Below are positions 22,514-30,568 of a stretch of 64,000 nucleotides of DNA, in pieces. The stretch's first letter is position 1. Every line of letters starts with the position of its first letter. The position numbers and the translations under genes were made by a program. The notes under the pieces are model-generated. The model saw nothing but the letters and a program-made list of their open reading frames with translations, was not told the origin of the DNA and made no database searches. Source of the DNA: Corallococcus exiguus (GTDB lineage: Bacteria; Myxococcota; Myxococcia; Myxococcales; Myxococcaceae); the NCBI RefSeq assembly GCF_012985275.1, contig NZ_JABEKY010000003.1; one strand, given 5' to 3'.

Positions 22514-23392
22514 TCAGCCCTGCGCGGAGCGGGGCTTGCGCGTGGACTTCTTCGTCGTCGCGATCTCCAGCGACAGGTCCATGGCCCGCGCTGAGTGCGT
22601 CAGCGCGCCCATCGACACGAAGTCCACGCCCAGCTTCGCCAGCCGGGGCAGCCGGTCCAACGTGACGCCGCCCGACACTTCGATGGGCACGCGGCTCGCC
22701 GTCAGCTTCACCGCTTCGCGGATCTGCGCGTCGTCCATGTTGTCCAACATGATGACGTCCGCGCCCGCGGCGATGGCCTCCTCCAGCTGCTTGAAGTTGG
22801 TGACCTCCACTTCAATCTTCACCAGCCGGGGACCGTTCAGCTTCGCGCGGCGCACCGCTTCGGTGATGTCGCCACCTACCGCCGCGATGTGGTTGTCCTT
22901 GATGAGGATGCCGTCGAAGAGGCCGAAGCGGTGGTTGGACGCGCCTCCCATGCGCACCGCGTGCTTCGCGAGGCCTCGCATGCCCGGCGGCGTCTTGCGC
23001 GTGTCCAGCACCCGCAGCTTCGAGCCCCGCACGGAGGTCATCGCCTGCTGGGCCAGCGTCGCGATGCCGGCGGCGCGCTGCACCAGGTTGAGCGCCGTGC
23101 GCTCCGCGGCCAGCAGCGAACGCAGCTTGCCGTGGACGCGCGCGGCGACCACCTTCGGTTTGATCTCCTCGCCGTCGCGCTTGAGGACCTCCACCTCCAC
23201 CTCCGCGTCCACCATGTGGAAGACGCGGACGAAGGCGTCCAGGCCGGCGACGATCATCTGCTCCTTCGCGACCAGCTCACCGCTGCCCTCCGCTTCGGCG
23301 GGGACCACCGCCAGCGAGGTGACGTCCCCCGCAGCACCCAGGTCCTCGTCGAGGGACAGCGCGATGAGCCGATCGAGATAATCCTGCTGCAC
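22514..23392 (-). CDS. nadC: nicotinate-nucleotide pyrophosphorylase (quinolinate phosphoribosyltransferase) with a short K/R-rich C-terminal tail
   Basis: Hallmarks of the NadC family are RVLDTRKTPPGMRGLAKHAVRMGGASNHRFGLFDGILIKDNHI and MLDNM. The gene lies 9 bp downstream of valS on the same strand. Confidence 0.9.
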   Translation of the reverse strand: MQQDYLDRLIALSLDEDLGAAGDVTSLAVVPAEAEGSGELVAKEQMIVAGLDAFVRVFHMVDAEVEVEVLKRDGEEIKPKVVAARVHGKLRSLLAAERTALNLVQRAAGIATLAQQAMTSVRGSKLRVLDTRKTPPGMRGLAKHAVRMGGASNHRFGLFDGILIKDNHIAAVGGDITEAVRRAKLNGPRLVKIEVEVTNFKQLEEAIAAGADVIMLDNMDDAQIREAVKLTASRVPIEVSGGVTLDRLPRLAKLGVDFVSMGALTHSARAMDLSLEIATTKKSTRKPRSAQG

Positions 23393-23401
23393 TTCCGCCT
23401 C

Positions 23402-26400
23402 CTACCGGCGCGCCTTGCGAGCCGGCTTGCCCCGAGTGGTCTTCTTCGCCGCGGCCTTCTTCGCGGCGGTCTTCTTCCCCGCCGCCTTCTTCGCCGAAGC
23501 CTTCTTCGCAGGAGCCTTCTTCACCGCCGCCTTCTTCGCGGCCGTCTTCTTGCCCGCTGCCTTCTTCGCGGAAGCCTTCTTCGCAGGGGCCTTCTTCGCG
23601 GCGGACTTCTTGCTCGCCGCCTTCTTCGCGGAGGCCTTCTTCACCGCCGCCTTCTTCGCGGAGGCCTTCTTCACAGGGGCCTTCTTCACCGCCGCCTTCT
23701 TCGCGGAGGCCTTCTTCGTCGGAGCCTTCTTCACCGGCTTCGCCGAGCCCTCCGGCGCCTCGCGGGCGTCGCCGCCCTCCTTGGCCCGGTCGAACTCGCG
23801 CATCGCGTCGTCCACGAGGCCCATGCTCATGTACGCGACGCCCAGGTCGTGGTGGTCCGCCGGGGACAGCCCTTCCTTGGTGCCCTCGCGCAGCTTGTTG
23901 AGGGCCTCCTCCACCATCGGATCCGCGGCCTGGGGCGCCTGCGAAGCCTCTTCGGCTTCAATCTCGCCCTTCAGCTCCTGGCCCAGGTTCACCGCTTCGT
24001 CCTTCGGTGCCTGCGGCTCGGTGGCCACCTTCACCTGGGCGCTCTCAGGCGCGAGGGACTCGGACGCTTCAGGGGCTTCGGACTCGGTGCTGCCCGGCAA
24101 CGGCGACGGCGTCTCGGACATGGGGGGCTCCGGGGCGATGCGCTGGAGGTGATCCTGCAGCTTGACCGTGCGCTCCTGGAGCTCCGCCACCCGGGCCTTG
24201 TCCTTCTCCACCACGTCCGGCGGAGCACGGGCCACGAAGTTCGGGTTGTCCAGCTTGCGCTGCAAACCGGTGAGTTCCTGCTCGGAGCGGACGATCTCCT
24301 TCTTCAGGCGGTCGCGCTCCGCGTCCAGGTCCACCAGGCCCGCCAGGGGCACGTAGATTTCCAGGTTGCCGCTCACGAACGCCGCCGCCTGCGGAGGCTT
24401 GGCGCCCGGGGGGCCCACCACCACCTCGGACAGGCCCGCGAGCGGCATCAGGTACGCGCGCCAACGCTCCAACAGCTCGCGCGTCGTCGCGTCCGGGCTC
24501 TGCACCACCGCCTTCACCTTGGCGGACGGCGGCAGGTTGCTCTCGCCGCGCAGCGTGCGCAGGCCCTCGATGGCCGCGATGACCGGCGCCATCTCGCCTT
24601 CCGCGGCCGCGTCCACCCACGCCGCCTCCGGCACCGGGTACGCCGCGATGCAGATGCTCTCCGTGGGCCGGGACATCGGCAGCTTCTGCCAGATCTCCTC
24701 GGTGATGAACGGCATGAACGGGTGCATCAGCCGCAGGATGCGGTCCAGGCACGTCACCAGCACCGCGCGCGTGGTGTCCTTGGCCTCCGCGTCGTCGCCG
24801 TACAACGAGCCCTTCGCCAGCTCGATGTACCAATCGCAGAACTCCGCCCACAGGAACTGGTACAGCGTGGACGCGGCCTCCGCGAAGCCGAACGCCTCCA
24901 GCGACGCGCGCGTCTCCTCGGTGGCCTTCTGCAGGCGGGAGAGGATCCACCGGTCCGCCAGCGTCAGCTTGCGGCCCTCCAGCGGCGTCTTGTCCAGGCT
25001 GAAGTCGCCCATGTTCATCAGGGCGAAGCGGCTGGCGTTCCACAGCTTGTTGCAGAACGCCTTGTAGCCACCCAGGCGGTCCATCGACAGCTTGATGTCA
25101 CGGCCCTGCTGCGTGAGCGACGCCAACGTGAAGCGCAGCGCGTCCGCGCCGTGCGCGGGCATGCCCTGCGGGAAGCGGTTGCGCAAGGACGGCTGCAGCG
25201 ACTCCGCCTTCGCGCCGAGGATGACGTCCAGGGGATCGATGACGTTCCCCTTCGTCTTGGACATCTTCTCGCCCTTCTCGTCGCGCACCATCGCGTGCAG
25301 GTACACGGTGCGGAAGGGCACGTCGTTCATGAAATGCAGGCCCATCATCATCATCCGGGCGACCCAGAAGAAGATGATGTCGTGGCCCGTCTCCATCACG
25401 GACGTCGGGTAGAAGGTCTGGAGGTCCGCCGTCTGCTTCGGCCAGCCCAGCGTGGAGAACGGCCACAGCGCGGACGAGAACCAGGTGTCCAGCACGTCCG
25501 GATCCTGCGTCAGCTCCTTGCCGCCGCACTTCGGGCAGGACTCCGGCGCCGTGCGCGACACGATGACGTCCGCCGTGTCCTTCGAGCGCTCTTCCGCCGG
25601 GGTGCACGCCGCGCAGTACCACGCCGGAATCTGGTGGCCCCACCACAGCTGGCGGCTCACGCACCAGTCGTGGATGTTGTTCATCCAGTGGAAGTACGTG
25701 TTCGTCCACGACTCGGGGACGAACTTGGTGCGGCCCTCCTCCACGGCCTGGATGGCCGGCTTCGCCAGGGGTTCGATCTTGATGAACCACTGCGGCGACA
25801 GGCGCGGCTCCACCACCGTGGTGCAGCGCTGGCAGGTGCCCACGTTCAGCTTGTGCGGCTCCTCCTTCTCCAGCAGGCCCAGCTCCGTCAGGTCCGCCAG
25901 CACCTGCGTGCGCGCCTCCCGGCTCTCCAGGCCCGCGTACTTGCCGGTGTCCTTCGTCATCCGCGCCGCTTCGTCCAGGATGGACAGCATCGGCAGCTTG
26001 TGGCGCAGGCCCGTCTGGTAGTCGTTGAAGTCGTGCGCGGGCGTGACCTTCACCACGCCGGTGCCGAACTCCATGTTCACCAGCTCGCCGTCCGCGATGA
26101 CCGGAATCTCACGGTCGGTGAGCGGCAGCGCCACGCGCTTGCCGATGAGGTCCTGGTAGCGCGGATCCTCCGGGTGCACGGCGACGGCCGTGTCGCCCAG
26201 CAGCGTCTCCGGGCGCGTCGTCGCCACGGTGAGGAAGCGCTCCGTGCCCTTCACCGGGTAGCGGATGTGCCAGAGCGAGCCGTTCTTCTCCTCGTGCTCC
26301 ACTTCCAGGTCGGAGAGGGCCGTGCGGCAGGACGGGCACCAGTTGATCAGCTTCTGGGCCCGGTACATCAGGCCCTCTTCGTACAGCCGGACGAACACCT

Positions 26401-26881
26401 CGCGCACCGCGGCCGAGGACTGCTCGTCCATGGTGAAGCGCTCGCGGCTCCAGTCCAGGGACGCGCCCAGGTAGCGGTGCTGCTCACCGATGCGCGCGCC
26501 GAACTTGCCCTTCCACGTCCAGACGCGCTCGAGGAACGCCTCGCGGCCCAGGTCGTGGCGGCTCTTGCCCTCCGTCTTCTTGAGCTCCTTCTCCACCACC
26601 ATCTGCGTGGCGATGCCCGCGTGGTCCGTGCCGGGCAGCCAGAGCGCGTTGAAGCCGCTCATCCGCTTCCAGCGCGTGAGGATGTCCTGGATGGTCGCGG
26701 TGAGCGCGTGGCCGATGTGCAGGCTGCCCGTCACGTTGGGCGGCGGCAGCACGATGCTGAACGGCGGCTTGGAGGAAGGGGCTTCGGCGCGGAAGTAGTC
26801 GCGCTCCAGCCAGTGGTTGTACCACCGCGCCTCCACTTCGGAGGGCTCGTAGGCCTTGGACAGTTCAGTCGTGTCAGTCAT
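23402..26881 (-). CDS. valS: valyl-tRNA synthetase with a C-terminal extension of about 150 aa carrying histone-H1-like AKKA/KKAP repeats
   Basis: The N-terminus [17 protein letters not shown], the HIGH motif ([15 protein letters not shown]), KMSKTKGN (KMSKS), editing and anticodon-binding domains and a coiled-coil C-terminus are all present. It ends with ...[32 protein letters not shown]...GKPARKARR. Confidence 0.9.
23417..23755. repeat. degenerate tandem repeat of about 12-15 bp (GCCTTCTTCGCGG-type) encoding the Lys/Ala tail of ValRS
   Basis: Repeated GCCGCCTTCTTCGC(G/C) units were read on the plus strand. They are responsible for the artefactual FFAAAFF ORF 23415-24152. Confidence 0.75.
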
Positions 26882-26934: not shown

Positions 26935-28197
26935 TCAATGCTGGGTCTCGCGGTCCTTGATGAGCCGCTCCAGCTCTTCCCGGATGATGGTCTCCGCCAG
27001 CTGCGGAACGACCTCCCAGGCAATCTTCTCGATGACCTCGCGGGACGCCTTCGACAGCGCCTCGCGCAGCAGCGCCTCTCCGCCATCCGCGGCCGGACGG
27101 GCGCGCGCGGGCGGAGTCGCCGGCGAGGGGCCGCCGATGTCCAGGGAGATCTCCTCCGCGCCGCTGGGCTCGGGCAGCGAGTCCTCGATGCGGATGCTCT
27201 CCGTGCGGGCCTGCGCCGCGGGCGGGGCGGCCGGAGCGCCCAGCCCGAACGGATCCCGGGCACGGGCGGCCGGAGGCACCGCGGCGGGCGGGGGCGCGGA
27301 CGGCAGCGGCGCGGCGCCCGGAGGACGCGGGAAGCCGCCCGGGATGTTCGGGGCGCCAGGGCCCGGAGGACGCGCGGCCATGCCCGGAGGCGGCGCACCC
27401 GGAGGACGCGCGCCCGGAGGCACGGCACCCGGAGGAGGACGCGCACCCGGCGGCATGGCGCCCGGAGGCGGCGCACCCGGAGGACGCGCGCCCATGCCCG
27501 GAGGCGGCGCACCCGGCGGAGGACGTGCACCCGGCGGCATGGCGCCCGGAGGCGGCGCACCCGGAGGACGCGCGCCCGGAGGAACAGCGCCCGGCAGCGG
27601 ACGCGCCGCACCCGGAGGAGGAGGCACACCAGCGCCCGGAGGACGCGCGCCCGGAGGCACGGCACCCGGAGGAGGACGCGCACCCGGCGGCATGGCGCCC
27701 GGAGGCGGCGCACCCGCGGGACGCGCACCCGGCGGCACGGCGGCGGCGGGCGGCGCGCTGACTGGAGCGCTCGGGGCGGAGGTCTGGGGCAGAATGCGCG
27801 TCGCGGCGGACGCGGGCATCGTGTTGGACTTCTGGCCCACCAGCGCCTTCACCTTGTCGAGGAGGATCTGGCTCTCGAAGGGCTTGGTGATGTGGTCATC
27901 CGCCCGGGCGGCCTTCGCGCGGTTCTCGTCGAACGCCTCGAAGGTGCCGGCGAGCAGCAGCACCGGGATGGCCTGCGTGGAGGGGTCGCCCTTGAGCGCC
28001 TCGCAGACCTCGTAGCCGCTCTTGCCCGGCATCATCACGTCGGCGAGCACCACGTCCGGACGCAGCTCGCGCGTGCGGGAGATGGCGTCCAGCCCGTTGT
28101 CCACCGCGGTCACCTGGAAGTCTTCCGTCGCGAAGATCATCCCGATCACCTTGCGGATGGTGAGCGAGTCGTCGGCGATCAGTAGATTCTTGGGCAT
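26935..28197 (-). CDS. romR: RomR-like polarity response regulator: N-terminal receiver, long proline-rich linker, conserved acidic C-terminal tail
   Basis: The receiver begins MPKNLLIADDSLTIRKV...DVVLADVMMPGKSGYEV...ITKPF, with an internal Met chosen as the start to give about 420 aa. A 250-aa PPGARPPGAPPPGAMPPGARPP repeat region follows. The C-terminus is EISLDIGGPSP...EVIEKIAWEVVPQLAETIIREELERLIKD. The domain order matches my recollection of M. xanthus RomR; no alignment was done. Confidence 0.65.
   Translation of the reverse strand: MPKNLLIADDSLTIRKVIGMIFATEDFQVTAVDNGLDAISRTRELRPDVVLADVMMPGKSGYEVCEALKGDPSTQAIPVLLLAGTFEAFDENRAKAARADDHITKPFESQILLDKVKALVGQKSNTMPASAATRILPQTSAPSAPVSAPPAAAVPPGARPAGAPPPGAMPPGARPPPGAVPPGARPPGAGVPPPPGAARPLPGAVPPGARPPGAPPPGAMPPGARPPPGAPPPGMGARPPGAPPPGAMPPGARPPPGAVPPGARPPGAPPPGMAARPPGPGAPNIPGGFPRPPGAAPLPSAPPPAAVPPAARARDPFGLGAPAAPPAAQARTESIRIEDSLPEPSGAEEISLDIGGPSPATPPARARPAADGGEALLREALSKASREVIEKIAWEVVPQLAETIIREELERLIKDRETQH
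27250..27750. repeat. proline-codon-rich tandem repeats (about 27-45 bp units) encoding the PPGARPPGAxPPG linker of the RomR-like protein
   Basis: Repeated GGCGCACCCGGAGGACGCGCGCCCGGAGG-like units were read directly. They are the source of several antisense artefact ORFs (26874-27728, 26881-28185, 27525-27761). Confidence 0.8.
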
Positions 28198-28314
28198 CGG
28201 CTCCGGCCTCGGGGGGCGCATACCCCCCTGAATTCGTTTGAGATTTCGGGCGAGCAAGCCTGCCTGCACGCCCTGTGTCAATCGGAGAAGCTTAGGATTC
28301 GCGCGTTGGGCCGA

Positions 28315-29181
28315 TCAAGAAAACATGCGCTGCAGGTCCAGTAACATCACCGGATCCGGCAGCCCCGGCGCCCGGAACGTTCCGGGAAGCTCGGCCGGCT
28401 TGAACTTCTGCAGCACACCCAGCACCCGGTTGGCCGCCAGCCCCACGTTCCGCCCCGCCATTTCCGTGAGGACGAACAACTCCTCCGCCTGGGCCGGCGC
28501 ACCCAGCAGCGCTGGAATCGAACAGATGGGCCATAGCGCCTGCGCGTGGGGATAGACGCCCGCCACCGGCCCGCTCTGCACCGGGAGGACGCTGAACGCC
28601 TCGCCCCGGGGTACCACCTGGGAGACGCAACCCAGCGGGACGCCGAACAGCACCCCCTGGGACTCCAGCACCAGCGCCCGCTCAGGGGGCTCGTCCGCAT
28701 AGTGCACGGGCCGGGGCTCTGGCGGGGTCGCCCGGGGGCCCGCCCGGTGCGGCAGCGCCTCCACGATGAGCTCCAGGTACAGCCGGTCCTTGTGCAGCAC
28801 CGCGCCCCGGCTCAGCGGCGCCAGCGAGTCCGCCAGTCCCGGAGGCAGCAGGAAGAACGGATCCCTCGCGACGTCCGCGACCTCCACCACTGCGCGCACC
28901 CGCACCGCGAGCGTGGGGCTGACGTCCAGGACCACCACCATGCCCGGCACTTCCTCAGGCAGGCCGCCGAGCAACGCGGCGAGGTCCTTCACTTCCAGTA
29001 CGCCGCGCAGACTCGCGCCGCGAGCGCCCGGCATCGCGACCTCGATGACGGAGGTGGCCTCCACCGCGTAGCGCGTCTCTCCGGCCTCCACCAGCAGGCA
29101 GAGCCGCCGTCCGCTTTCAAAGGGCACGGCCCGGGACCCTAGCAGCCTTCCAGCGTTGGGTGCTAAGCCCTGAACAGTCAT
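28315..29181 (-). CDS. CheW-like coupling protein with two tandem CheW-like domains
   Basis: Two segments resemble CheW domains (RLCLLVEAGETRYAVEATSVIEVA...MVVVLDVSPT... and ALVLESQGVLFGVPLGCVSQVVP...VGLAANRVLGVL). Choosing Met15 as the start makes its ATG (29179-29181) overlap the divergent GGDEF gene's ATG (29180-29182). The track ORF starts at 29223. Confidence 0.65.
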   Translation of the reverse strand: MTVQGLAPNAGRLLGSRAVPFESGRRLCLLVEAGETRYAVEATSVIEVAMPGARGASLRGVLEVKDLAALLGGLPEEVPGMVVVLDVSPTLAVRVRAVVEVADVARDPFFLLPPGLADSLAPLSRGAVLHKDRLYLELIVEALPHRAGPRATPPEPRPVHYADEPPERALVLESQGVLFGVPLGCVSQVVPRGEAFSVLPVQSGPVAGVYPHAQALWPICSIPALLGAPAQAEELFVLTEMAGRNVGLAANRVLGVLQKFKPAELPGTFRAPGLPDPVMLLDLQRMFS

Positions 29182-30568
29182 GGCGCGACTGCTCCTCGTC
29201 GACGACGAAAAGATCGCCCGCAATCTCTACGGCGACTACCTCACGGCCGCGGGACACCTGGTCACGGCGGTGCCCACCGTGGCGGACGCGAAGGCCGCCC
29301 TCTCCGCGGCGCGGTTCGACGCGGTGGTGACGGACCTCATCCTCCCCGGCGGCGACGGCATGGAGGTGCTTCGCCACGTGCGCGAGCGCTACCCCGGCGT
29401 GGAGGTGCTGGTCATCACCGGCCTGGACAAGGTGGCCCCCGCGGTGCGCGCCATCAAGAGCGGCGCGGCGGAGTACCTGGTCAAGCCCGTGGCGCCGGAG
29501 GCCCTGGAGCACGCGCTGCGCCGCGCGCTCACCACGCGCGACCTGATGCGTGAGAACGCGTCCCTGCGCCAGCACGTCGCGCTGCTGGAGGCGGGCCAGC
29601 GCATCGCCACCACGCTCGACCGCGAGCGGCTGTCCACGGCCGCGTCCGACGCGCTGGAGTCCATGGCCAACGCCTCCGCGGTGATGCTCCTGGAGCGGGA
29701 CCCTGGCGGCACGGGCTTCCGCTCGCACGGCATGCGCGGGCTGCCGGTGGACCTGCACGAGGCGCTCGTCCCGCTGCTCATCGAGCGGCTTTCGGGCACG
29801 CGCACGCAGGTGGAGCTCGACGGACTTCAAGTTCCCTGGCCGCGCACCCTCTCCTTCCCCGCCGTGGACGGCGAGCTGGTGCTGGGCCACGCGGTGCTCT
29901 TCCACGACAACGCGCCCGCGGAGCACCACGCGGAGACCGTGGGCTTCCTCGTGCGCAACTGGGCGCTGGCCCTGCGCAACCTGGGCCGCTTCGCCGCCGT
30001 GGAGGACCTGGCCTACGTCGATGATCTCACCCGCCTGTTCAACACGCGCTACCTGCACCTGGTGCTGGACCGCGAGGTGAACGAGGCCCTCCAGACGGAG
30101 CGCCCCTTCTCCCTGCTGTTCCTGGACCTGGACCGCTTCAAGGCCATCAACGACACGCACGGGCACCTGGTGGGCTCGCGGGTGCTGGTGGAGGCCGCGC
30201 GCGTGCTCAAGGGCTGCGTGCGCGACCCGGACGTGGTGGCGCGCTTCGGCGGCGACGAGTACGTGGTGCTCCTGCGCGGCACGGACTCCGGCGGGGCCCT
30301 CAAGGTCGCCGAGCGCATCCGCCGCACCATGGAGACCCATCAGTTCCTGGGCCGCGAGGGGCTGGCGCTCAAGCTCACCACCTGCATCGGCGTGGCCAGC
30401 TTCCCGGAGCATGCCCAGGACAAGGACCACCTGCTGGACCTGTCCGACCGGGCCATGTACCGGGGCAAGCGCGGCACCCGGAACGTCGTCTACATGGCGG
30501 CGCAGGACCTGGAAGCCACCCCGGCCGAGCGCCGTCAGAATCCCCCGCCCCCGCAGGGCCAGGGCTGA
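29180..30568 (+). CDS. response regulator receiver + GAF-like middle + GGDEF diguanylate cyclase
   Basis: The receiver is MARLLLVDDEKIARN...VTDLILPGGDGMEV...YLVKP. The GGDEF domain has RLFNTRYLH...LLFLDLDRFKAINDTHGH...RFGGDEYVVLL, with an intact GGDEY active site. Confidence 0.85.
   Translation: MARLLLVDDEKIARNLYGDYLTAAGHLVTAVPTVADAKAALSAARFDAVVTDLILPGGDGMEVLRHVRERYPGVEVLVITGLDKVAPAVRAIKSGAAEYLVKPVAPEALEHALRRALTTRDLMRENASLRQHVALLEAGQRIATTLDRERLSTAASDALESMANASAVMLLERDPGGTGFRSHGMRGLPVDLHEALVPLLIERLSGTRTQVELDGLQVPWPRTLSFPAVDGELVLGHAVLFHDNAPAEHHAETVGFLVRNWALALRNLGRFAAVEDLAYVDDLTRLFNTRYLHLVLDREVNEALQTERPFSLLFLDLDRFKAINDTHGHLVGSRVLVEAARVLKGCVRDPDVVARFGGDEYVVLLRGTDSGGALKVAERIRRTMETHQFLGREGLALKLTTCIGVASFPEHAQDKDHLLDLSDRAMYRGKRGTRNVVYMAAQDLEATPAERRQNPPPPQGQG

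Follow-up and report, generated by a model that had tools for sequence, protein, structure and literature searches.

[quoted passage not shown] Eukaryotic appended domains, of which that of ValRS is a classic example, raise the affinity of the enzyme for tRNA while being dispensable for chemistry (PMC3306390, PMC6213541), and lysine-rich domains of this kind tend to be described as an invention of eukaryotes, missing in bacterial relatives (PMC3306390). In bacteria, the lysine repeats of actinobacterial TopA have been shown experimentally to stabilise the enzyme-DNA complex (PMC5714199), and the KPAA tail of AlgP binds DNA as well as polyphosphate (polyP) granules, its repeat region being a mutational hot spot (PMC9239181). 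In myxobacterial CarD, the HMGA-like C-terminal domain consists of an acidic and then a basic disordered segment. Histone H1, or its C-terminal region alone, can take its place, and for CarD to function a generic disordered domain of basic character is enough (PMC8156234, PMC4374960). Finally, the type IV pilus activator SgmX of Myxococcus xanthus contains 14 tetratricopeptide repeats (TPRs), which work in triads (PMC9811614). In the literature, we found no study of a myxobacterial ValRS extension, nor of a link between romR and valS.

The window analysed here is a stretch of 64,000 nucleotides of Corallococcus exiguus DNA (contig NZ_JABEKY010000003.1). From the list of open reading frames (ORFs) and its translation, valS spans 23402..26881 on the minus strand and encodes 1159 aa followed by a stop codon, in agreement with the original prediction of a ValRS at these coordinates. 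The protein is a complete bacterial-type class Ia valine--tRNA ligase. Its catalytic domain with the editing insertion (aa 20-599, 25085..26824, minus strand; Pfam tRNA-synt_1, E = 1.2e-150) is modelled by AF2 with pLDDT mostly >85, and is followed on the same strand by the anticodon-binding domain (aa 643-792, 24506..24955; Pfam Anticodon_1, E = 5.9e-42) and by the C-terminal coiled-coil tRNA-binding arm (aa 851-915, 24137..24331; Pfam Val_tRNA-synt_C, E = 1.2e-18), in which AF2 places helices at 852-878 and 888-915. The HIGH-type motif LHIGHAL and KMSKTKGN are both seen. The sequence is ~99% identical to the deposited C. exiguus ValRS, with 5 residue differences from P0428, and passes the valS equivalog models over the full length (TIGR00422, 1136 vs 612; PRK05729, 1253 vs 704). 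It also passes the model for long-form ValRS (NCBIfam NF011492/PRK14900, 1044 positions), with 1817.9 bits vs a cut-off of 1783. Residues 1-1111 align with profile positions 3-1027, and the tail alone with positions 885-1022: the NCBI long-ValRS model already spans part of the tail.

Ordinary bacterial ValRS ends with the coiled-coil arm, where the non-myxobacterial and the tail-less orthologues terminate. In the C. exiguus protein, the frame continues for 244 aa (916-1159), and not for ~150 aa as first estimated. This extension is composed of three parts, an acidic linker (916-984), a helical core (985-1035) and a polycation (1050-1159), the last two being separated by a short variable spacer (aa 1036-1049, 23735..23776, minus strand; identity 0.33) that AF2 models as disordered. 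It had been thought to open with a helix pair; instead, it opens with ~70 aa of acidic, Pro/Ser/Glu-rich linker, delineated by composition and AF2 (23930..24136, minus strand), a segment absent from the first description. The linker is disordered, with pLDDT <50 over 920-986, and its mean identity to orthologues is 0.31 with 24% gaps. One sub-element, VKVA..P...V(D/N)L..ELK.E, is conserved in the alignment and holds a predicted helix (966-979). Taken over the whole tail, the acidic part carries a net charge of about -20.

At the other end of the extension, the histone-H1-like polycationic tail (aa 1050-1159, 23405..23734, minus strand), delineated by composition, Pfam HC2 and AF2 (pLDDT ~30), consists of 20 xKKxx pentapeptides in perfect register, in line with the roughly 20 repeats anticipated, followed by [10 protein letters not shown]. 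The K/A part contains 38% K and 35% A and has a net charge of +46, far beyond chance in a genome of 68% GC. The DNA repeats of 12-15 bp predicted beneath it correspond to a 15-bp tandem repeat (23441..23736; TRF period 15, 19.7 copies, 75% matches), for which a repeat search returned 18 copies at exact 15-nt spacing. With a GC3 of 0.91, vs 0.97 in the enzyme body, the repeat region behaves as normal coding sequence. The proposed histone-H1/AlgP-like composition was recovered by Pfam HC2 (PF07382), with 41.5 bits vs a gathering score of 40, and by the name of a UniRef fragment, "histone H1-like repetitive region-containing protein", but the NCBIfam models for Hc2 (NF038052, 31.5 vs 135) and for hist_H1_lk_Burk (NF038053, 45.9 vs 80) remained below their cut-offs. 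Since the K/A composition drives these scores, the H1 and Hc2 matches show resemblance and do not establish homology. The tail does not belong with AlgP/PhaF, as its unit is a pentapeptide and its N-terminal partner is ValRS.

Between the charged segments lies the three-helix core (aa 985-1035, 23777..23929, minus strand), delimited by conservation and AF2 and made of a leading helix and one TPR-like helix pair. AF2 places its helices at 988-1000, 1007-1019 and 1023-1035, and in a core-only model the pLDDT of the core reaches 96. The helix pair noticed at first, [22 protein letters not shown] (residues 1010-1031), is thus part of a larger conserved unit of ~50 aa and three helices, to which a conserved upstream helix is added. 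Mean identity of the core over 77 orthologues is 0.72, the level of the anticodon-binding domain, vs 0.31-0.33 for the flanking segments. Of the 30 loci found by pattern, which represent several genera, 28 carry the 21-residue helix-pair motif unchanged, and the remaining two have changes at M/S and L/V positions only. This strong conservation, like the existence of tail-less and split relatives, was missing from the original prediction.

The evidence favours a TPR-like assignment of this unit, in the sense of one unit and not of a TPR domain. Foldseek of the core against the PDB returned TPR proteins as top matches (~30 residues at 0.6-1.6 A, every E at least 1), the core profile matches the TPR unit of MamA (E = 2.6e-4), and the sequence has the TPR consensus residues L, G, Y, A, F and A; Pfam TPR_2 scored 14.2 bits vs 27 (E = 0.051). 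With its leading helix, the core shares 51% identity over 47 aa with the first TPR that follows the disordered linker of an SgmX-like protein. The 14-TPR SgmX model (NCBIfam NF052243) gave 32.4 bits vs a cut-off of 1800, as a local match to positions 813-925. We found no tandem array of at least three repeats forming a superhelical groove: the tail has one hairpin (1007-1035), with one or two further helices ahead of it and disordered flanks. A six-frame scan of the whole window revealed no second core motif and no further K/A-rich tail. A word-indexed homolog search with the 60-aa core returned a single protein, P0091; this search seems biased to matches of query length and could therefore not expose other hosts of the motif. 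We weighed P0091 (94 aa, with the core motif) as a candidate free protein made of the core and a basic tail, and rejected it because its contig (L076) is a frameshift-ridden assembly in which all neighbour genes are fragmented, valS is in three pieces and nadC is truncated.

One reading takes the main function of the tail to be the docking of ValRS, through the core, on a protein partner. Candidates for this partner are a second TPR protein, a receiver-type domain of the kind seen in the SgmX-FrzS pair, or a multi-synthetase or ribosome-associated complex, and the charged segments would then be no more than spacers and aids to solubility. Such a role would account for a core that is conserved like the anticodon-binding domain, whose motif is nearly invariant and which folds confidently. 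It would fit the likeness to the SgmX-like protein, given that SgmX TPR triads bind FrzS-CheY and MglA (PMC9811614), and some yeast synthetase appendages do make protein-protein contacts (PMC3306390). However, the tail has a single TPR-like unit, while about three repeats are normally needed for a binding site (PMC9811614), and the partner is hypothetical. Moreover, the core is lost in the Archangium/Melittangium branch and absent in P0092-type and split-ORF forms, all of which keep the basic tail, and the synteny of romR and valS also holds in lineages where the tail is missing. We consider docking as the main function distinctly unlikely.

The original prediction asked for a check of whether the tail is conserved and variable in length across Myxococcales, and in the myxobacterial alignment it is both. 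The basic tail is found in every cultured-genus orthologue examined, all tail-bearing orthologues retain a basic end, and total tail length ranges from 130 to 402 aa in the aligned set and reaches 447 aa in M. vastator. In the 74 tail-bearing orthologues that were scored, the basic part measures 45 to 280 aa, with an identity of 0.41, a net charge of +17 to +69 (median +41.5) and a charge density of 0.19 to 0.54, suggesting that selection acts on charge and less on sequence, positive charge being kept throughout. Acidic and basic charges are correlated among orthologues (rho = -0.77, a statistic that ignores phylogeny). The length polymorphism expected from the DNA repeats was also observed: C. 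exiguus and close Corallococcus, which form one 90% cluster, have ValRS of 1150 to 1165 aa, and M. xanthus has ValRS of 1294 to 1302 aa. Among the closest Corallococcus, most of the length differences come in steps of 5 aa, which fits slippage or recombination of the 15-bp repeat.

These data bear on two dismissive readings of the tail. In the first, a sequencing or assembly error deleted the true stop codon after the coiled-coil, and the tail is a translated intergenic repeat. Some relatives do end at the coiled-coil, and one public assembly (L076) is visibly frameshifted. However, the same 1159-aa protein, with 5 residue differences, is encoded in independent C. exiguus genomes, the curated PRK14900 model takes in the tail, the GC3 and codon usage match coding sequence, and >70 orthologues, from independent genomes and metagenome-assembled genomes (MAGs), retain the long frame and its ...ARR/KKR end. 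The comparative data thus already refute an artefact, whose probability we regard as negligible. The original prediction had named tail-less orthologues and a frameshift as findings that would speak against the tail: true orthologues without it exist, but no frameshift accounts for a tail that so many relatives hold in frame. In the second reading, the tail is a near-neutral low-complexity expansion, driven by slippage, functionless, and tolerated on a robust enzyme. The large variation in length, the slippage of the repeat, the repeated loss and the low identity of the linker and of the K/A region are what such drift would produce. Yet the frame and the basic end persist over deep divergence, down to ~60% identity of the ValRS body, a high charge density is maintained, the folded core is strongly conserved, and two lineages in which the tail is a separate ORF retain a ribosome-binding site for it. 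We therefore find neutrality highly improbable.

The lineages that lack the tail, or encode it apart, are found in conserved loci. Directly downstream of valS, nadC (22514..23392, minus strand; TIGR00078, E = 1.5e-90) has a GGAGG ribosome-binding site that overlaps the valS stop codon. The K/R tail ascribed to nadC amounts to 5 basic residues in the last 14, and is non-repetitive and unremarkable. The upstream gene is named RomR-like by architecture, since NCBIfam has no RomR-specific model. The tail-less orthologues P0330, P0337, P0322 and P0346 share the same CheW / receiver / valS / nadC neighbourhood, and in tail-less uncultured relatives nadC comes straight after the coiled-coil. In two further lineages (L065-67 and L074), the gene is split: a stop codon is followed by a GGAGG ribosome-binding site, an ATG and a small ORF, acidic at its N terminus and basic at its C terminus, that lies between valS and nadC and whose relative frame differs among the split lineages. 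NCBIfam and Pfam scans of these small ORFs returned no family. Since several syntenic orthologues lack it and two lineages carry it as a small gene of its own, the tail is best described as a dispensable fused module. These comparisons show that essential aminoacylation does not depend on it. A rough neighbour-joining tree (Kimura distance, without support values) places the fused forms at the clade base, from which we infer an ancestral tail followed by repeated loss.

The junction itself carries a trace compatible with two genes. The codon for Met921 is preceded by GGAG with a 6-nt spacer (24119..24131, minus strand). In the orthologue alignment, a methionine occupies this position in 42 of the 58 aligned sequences, the arrangement ccGGAGcc.(c/g)ccATG recurs in nine pattern-matching loci from several genera, and it is here that the free-standing ORF of the split lineages begins, with MSE(E)RTPEE. 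This element may be what is left of an earlier boundary between genes, or it may serve as an internal start. The former would suit a tail derived from a small H1-like nucleoid or polyP protein, fused to valS when the stop codon between two adjacent and co-translated genes was lost. Its role, in binding DNA or polyP and organising the chromosome or granules, would be independent of aminoacylation, the fusion merely ensuring co-expression or tethering some ValRS to the nucleoid. The homologous free-standing ORFs with their own ribosome-binding site, the composition, which fits HC2/H1-like models, the DNA- and polyP-binding precedents of the CarD and AlgP tails and the several lineages that manage without a tail would all follow. 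Nevertheless, the fusion is kept in all cultured genera sampled and in many MAG lineages, while irrelevance to ValRS predicts more splits; the fused forms are basal in the rough tree; and expression of the small ORF and DNA binding remain predictions. We view this origin and role as possible but rather unlikely. It shares polyanion binding with the tether proposed below, and differs from it in the ligand and in the benefit to ValRS.

If the element were an internal start, valS would be two genes in one, encoding ValRS and an internally initiated H1-like protein of ~239 aa. The GGAG-N6-ATG at Met921 may drive synthesis of a product comprising the linker, the TPR-like unit and the polycation, and this product, if made, would be the counterpart of the separate gene product of the split lineages. 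More speculatively, its TPR-like unit might dock on a receiver-type domain of the polarity and motility network, an idea prompted by the closeness of the core to the first post-linker TPR of the SgmX-like protein and by the conserved romR-like/valS neighbourhood. We rate this two-in-one scheme a long shot. Docking of this kind, if it occurs, would tie an enzyme of translation, or the tail detached from it, to the organisation of the cell pole or nucleoid in a social bacterium.

On balance, we lean towards the tail being a fused, separable module that acts as a polycationic tether for ValRS, by analogy with the lysine-rich domains of yeast ValRS and GlnRS, with the lysine repeats of Streptomyces TopA and with the CarD and AlgP tails. 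An accessory module would have been joined to a complete ValRS after its tRNA-binding coiled-coil. Its polycation would bind polyanions non-specifically, most likely tRNA or ribosomal RNA, with DNA or polyP as further candidates, and the flexible tether would raise the local concentration of tRNA, or hold ValRS near the translation machinery or the nucleoid, the acidic linker giving reach and partly balancing the charge. Within this scheme, the conserved helical core would probably make contact with a protein or with itself. Three observations weigh against such a tether. Repeated loss and the split form suggest that strict capture of tRNA in cis is not required, and would fit a function apart from aminoacylation just as well; pure electrostatics leave the conservation of the 50-aa folded core unexplained; and some of the positive charge could be cancelled by the acidic linker.

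Taken together, the tail is real, yet an optional addition whose general kind is already well known, common to most relatives and lost or split off in others. Tails of such composition are common in high-GC bacteria. Here, a whole bacterial lineage has a ValRS appendage of the general type regarded as eukaryotic, and a much larger one. The fused, split and deleted versions in syntenic loci offer comparisons for what a polycationic disordered tail does, be it to capture tRNA, to tether the enzyme to ribosome or nucleoid, to associate with polyP or to form condensates. The locus also illustrates clearly how a coding 15-bp repeat in an essential gene can differ in length from strain to strain.

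Compared with described systems, the resemblance to SgmX is at the level of the motif, with one unit in the tail, and does not amount to family membership. The domains of eukaryotic synthetases (the N-terminal domains of yeast ValRS and GlnRS, the extensions of LysRS and AspRS) are, like the tail, lysine-rich, largely disordered and located outside the catalytic core. They differ in being mostly N-terminal, described as absent from bacterial relatives and without sequence homology to the tail, whereas the Corallococcus tail is C-terminal, far longer, built of 5-aa repeats and equipped with an acidic linker and a TPR-like unit. The likeness is one of composition and position. AlgP/PhaF and chlamydial Hc2 share with the tail a K/A/P-rich, tandem-repeat disordered polycation with a net charge of ~+50; this likeness is compositional, as the 4-aa KPAA contrasts with the 5-aa xKKxx and the host of the tail is an enzyme. 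TopA, like ValRS, is an essential bacterial nucleic-acid enzyme with a lineage-specific lysine-repeat tail of variable length, but it is a different enzyme, from another phylum and with DNA as its substrate. CarD of M. xanthus differs by its RGRP AT-hooks, its AT-rich promoter DNA, its RNAP-binding transcription factor host and the lack of a TPR-like unit, but it is a myxobacterial protein in which, as in ValRS, a disordered C-terminal acidic-then-basic module is carried by a folded domain.

The valS ORF, located in the ORF list at 23402..26881 on the minus strand, translates into a protein of 1159 aa in which Pfam delineates tRNA-synt_1 (residues 20-599), Anticodon_1 (residues 643-792) and Val_tRNA-synt_C, the ValRS coiled-coil arm (residues 851-915). 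The protein is a class Ia ValRS that passes the NCBIfam valS equivalogs by wide margins, shares 99% identity with P0242, a Corallococcus exiguus 'valine--tRNA ligase', and differs by 5 residues from P0428, a deposited C. exiguus protein of equal length. The ORF runs 244 residues past the coiled-coil, well beyond the extension of about 150 aa of the original prediction. This tail comprises an acidic, Pro/Ser/Glu-rich linker (residues 916-984), a conserved helical core containing the motif initially noted (residues 985-1035) and, after a short spacer, a polycation (residues 1050-1159; 38% Lys, 35% Ala, net +46). The polycation indeed contains the roughly 20 Lys/Ala repeats that had been anticipated, as 20 xKKxx pentapeptides in perfect register followed by 10 further residues. 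At the DNA level, TRF detected a 15-bp tandem repeat of 19.7 copies at 23441-23736, and a repeat search found 18 copies at exact 15-nt spacing. GC3 is 0.91 in the repeat versus 0.97 in the enzyme body, so that the repeat resembles ordinary coding DNA. The valS stop codon overlaps the GGAGG of nadC (23392-23404, minus strand; CGG TAG GAGGCGGAA GTG, where GTG is the nadC start), suggesting translational coupling between the two genes. NadC, for which a K/R tail had also been proposed, does end in a basic stretch, TTKKSTRKPRSAQG, but this is only mildly basic and non-repetitive.

The coiled-coil is the usual end of bacterial ValRS. Of the best 150 matches in an exhaustive search over 1.84 billion representatives, nearly all have an alignment that ends at about residues 899-921 of the query. 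Among 25 longer sequences inspected, internal insertions account for the extra length of the bacterial-looking ones, and non-myxobacterial ValRS translated from the genome scan have their C-terminus at the coiled-coil. By contrast, the K/A-rich tail, with an ...ARR or ...KKR terminus, was present in all 33 loci with a 3'-complete ORF in a scan of 35 myxobacterial loci (Corallococcus, Myxococcus, Pyxidicoccus, Citreicoccus and Archangiaceae/Myxococcaceae MAGs), and L013 and L024, two loci cut by contig ends, still show tail sequence. A set of 120 close homologs added Stigmatella, Hyalangium, Melittangium, Aggregicoccus and Archangium to the named tail-bearing genera.

The segments of the protein are unequally conserved. 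Mean identity to the window protein over 77 tail-bearing orthologues is 0.80 for the catalytic domain, 0.72 for the anticodon-binding domain, 0.67 for the coiled-coil, 0.31 for the linker, 0.72 for the core, 0.33 for the spacer and 0.41 for the K/A tail. A 21-residue core motif is invariant in 28 of 30 pattern-matched loci from several genera, the other two differing at M/S and L/V positions only. Tails are 130 to 402 aa long in the aligned set, and that of M. vastator (L022) reaches 447 aa; the basic part varies from 45 to 280 aa and from net +17 to +69, always at high charge density (0.19-0.54 charges per residue). It thus seems to be charge and disorder that selection maintains in the tail, and the exact sequence that it maintains in the core. 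Among 74 tail-bearing orthologues, the more negative the net charge of the acidic part, the more positive that of the basic part (Spearman rho = -0.77, uncorrected for phylogeny), which hints at charge balancing.

Length also varies between close relatives. Within a single 90%-identity cluster, ValRS of C. exiguus and close Corallococcus measure 1150, 1152, 1154, 1159, 1164 or 1165 aa; those of M. xanthus strains, clustered likewise, measure 1294, 1297, 1298 or 1302 aa, with up to 1377 aa in related Myxococcus species. Gaps between the closest Corallococcus tails are mostly multiples of 5 aa, confirming the predicted length polymorphism; such a pattern is what slippage of the 15-bp repeat, or unequal recombination within it, should leave.

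An AlphaFold2 model built from an 84-sequence alignment (mean pLDDT 78) displayed a confident ValRS body, predicted disorder at residues 920-986 (pLDDT < 50), predicted helices at 966-979, 988-1000, 1007-1019 and 1023-1035 (pLDDT 63-85), and full predicted disorder at 1037-1159 (pLDDT about 30). In a core-only model, the last two helices reached a pLDDT of 96. Foldseek returned no significant PDB match for the core, as expected for so small a unit; its top matches were mostly TPR proteins (consensus TPR, MamA, APC/C), over about 30 residues at 0.6-1.6 Å. The core sequence profile matched a MamA TPR unit (E = 2.6e-4), and Pfam TPR_2 matched below threshold. Thus, the TPR-like helix pair initially described corresponds to a single TPR-like hairpin preceded by a helix, but not to a TPR domain. 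The closest relative of the core outside ValRS, with 51% identity over 47 aa, leading helix included, lies in a Polyangiaceae MAG, at residues 740-786 of a 908-aa SgmX-like multi-TPR protein (L064, 327-3053, plus strand), where it forms the first TPR, plus leading helix, beyond some 390 aa of disordered linker.

Conservation of the tail is nevertheless incomplete: kept with variable length in many genera, it is absent or encoded separately in several uncultured relatives. About 20 of the 120 close homologs (about 70% identity, 910-934 aa) end at the coiled-coil and, where named, come from uncultured 'Myxococcaceae bacterium' MAGs. They share the neighbourhood CheW-like, receiver protein, valS, nadC and phosphodiesterase, and are therefore orthologues. 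The same order is kept in tail-bearing, split and tail-less lineages (L065-L074), with no CheW-annotated gene in L068 and L073. In the window, the CheW-like gene (28315-29223, minus strand) lies upstream of the receiver gene (26935-28281, minus strand), itself directly upstream of valS. The 448-aa receiver protein consists of a receiver domain, some 190 aa of Pro/Gly/Ala-rich repeats, where local GC rises to 0.85, and a helical acidic C-terminus. This architecture is that of the polarity regulator RomR and makes the protein a candidate RomR; NCBIfam has no RomR-specific model. Separately, in L076 (ENA contig_27554), valS and nadC, like the genes around them, are fragmented into several short ORFs apiece, and P0091, a 94-aa 'protein' from this evidently frameshift-rich assembly, was discarded as spurious.

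In four lineages, nadC directly follows valS and the tail is absent altogether. In two others (P0353, and P0358 with 21 contigs of independent assemblies), valS has a stop codon after the coiled-coil, and a GGAGG(A) ribosome-binding site then leads into the ATG of a small ORF (136 aa in P0358). This ORF shares the valS frame in L065 (6758-7180) and is shifted to +1 in L074 (4083-4404), each with its own GGAGG site. Both small ORFs begin with MSE(E)RTPEE, have an acidic, Gly/Met-rich N-terminus and a K/R/A-rich C-terminus, and matched no Pfam or NCBIfam family. These split genes back the main rival to the flexible tether that we favour: the tail would be a small H1-like protein of the nucleoid or of polyP that became joined to valS and whose function has nothing to do with charging. 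Met921, at the position matching the first residue of the split ORF, is the commonest residue at its column (42/58 aligned orthologues), and in nine pattern-matched loci a GGAG and a 6-nt spacer stand before its codon (24119-24131 in the window, minus strand); both are conserved within an otherwise variable linker. The fusion point therefore still bears a gene-start footprint, either left over from a former boundary between genes or a candidate internal start of translation. In a rough neighbour-joining tree of the enzyme body, forms with core and K/A tail are basal, tail-less groups are nested at three or four places, and the core was lost once, in the Archangium/Melittangium branch, which carries poly-acidic stretches instead. 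This suggests that fusion came first, followed by losses and a fission. The more distant P0092 clade (Myxococcales MAGs, 51% identity) has a different extension, made up of a (PKSQPP)n linker, a GMGGG stretch, a single helix and a tail rich in K/R/A/G, and lacking the TPR-like core.

Taken together, these comparisons and models show that the tail is real, translated, lineage-wide and dispensable for the essential role of ValRS, a tripartite, mostly disordered polyampholyte with a strongly conserved small unit modelled as folded. Pfam names the coiled-coil a tRNA-binding arm, and in the T. thermophilus ValRS-tRNA complex this arm reportedly touches the tRNA elbow; T. thermophilus ValRS chains (1gax) were among the PDB sequence matches. 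Because the tail begins at the end of this arm, we favour a flexible tether that would capture tRNA or hold ValRS on RNA-rich or nucleoid surfaces. Non-specific polyanion binding by the polycation would follow four precedents: the Lys-rich appended domains of yeast GlnRS and ValRS, auxiliary tRNA binders in cis (PMC3306390); the lysine repeats that stabilise the enzyme-DNA complex of Streptomyces TopA (PMC5714199); the disordered C-terminal domain of myxobacterial CarD, which has the same acidic-then-basic layout as the ValRS tail and for which the C-terminal region of histone H1 can substitute (PMC8156234, PMC4374960); and the KPAA tail of AlgP, which binds DNA and polyP granules (PMC9239181). 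The tether and the fused H1-like protein have this physical mechanism in common; what sets them apart is the ligand and the beneficiary. Neither electrostatic model explains the conserved core, which points to self-association or to a specific contact with a protein. We consider improbable a reading in which translation also starts internally at Met921, yielding a free H1-like protein, and in which the TPR-like unit connects ValRS or the tail to the adjoining receiver-domain polarity network.

The feature is already in databases, since the window ValRS belongs to the curated NCBI long-form family NF011492/PRK14900 (1044 positions; 1817.9 against a cut-off of 1783), with the tail aligned to profile positions 885-1022, and UniRef names one C-terminal fragment a 'histone H1-like repetitive region-containing protein'. 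A literature search for discussion of the myxobacterial ValRS extension found no paper. We conclude that the tail is a solid and evolutionarily informative feature, of familiar composition and existing annotation. By analogy, it may work like Hc2, but falls short of the defining cut-offs of that family, save for a marginal, composition-driven Pfam HC2 pass. It may likewise resemble AlgP/PhaF, TPR-domain and SgmX proteins in its working, while lying outside the defining criteria of each of these families. We see it as a new bacterial form of two familiar designs, the Lys-rich synthetase appendages and the H1-like tails carried by bacterial proteins.
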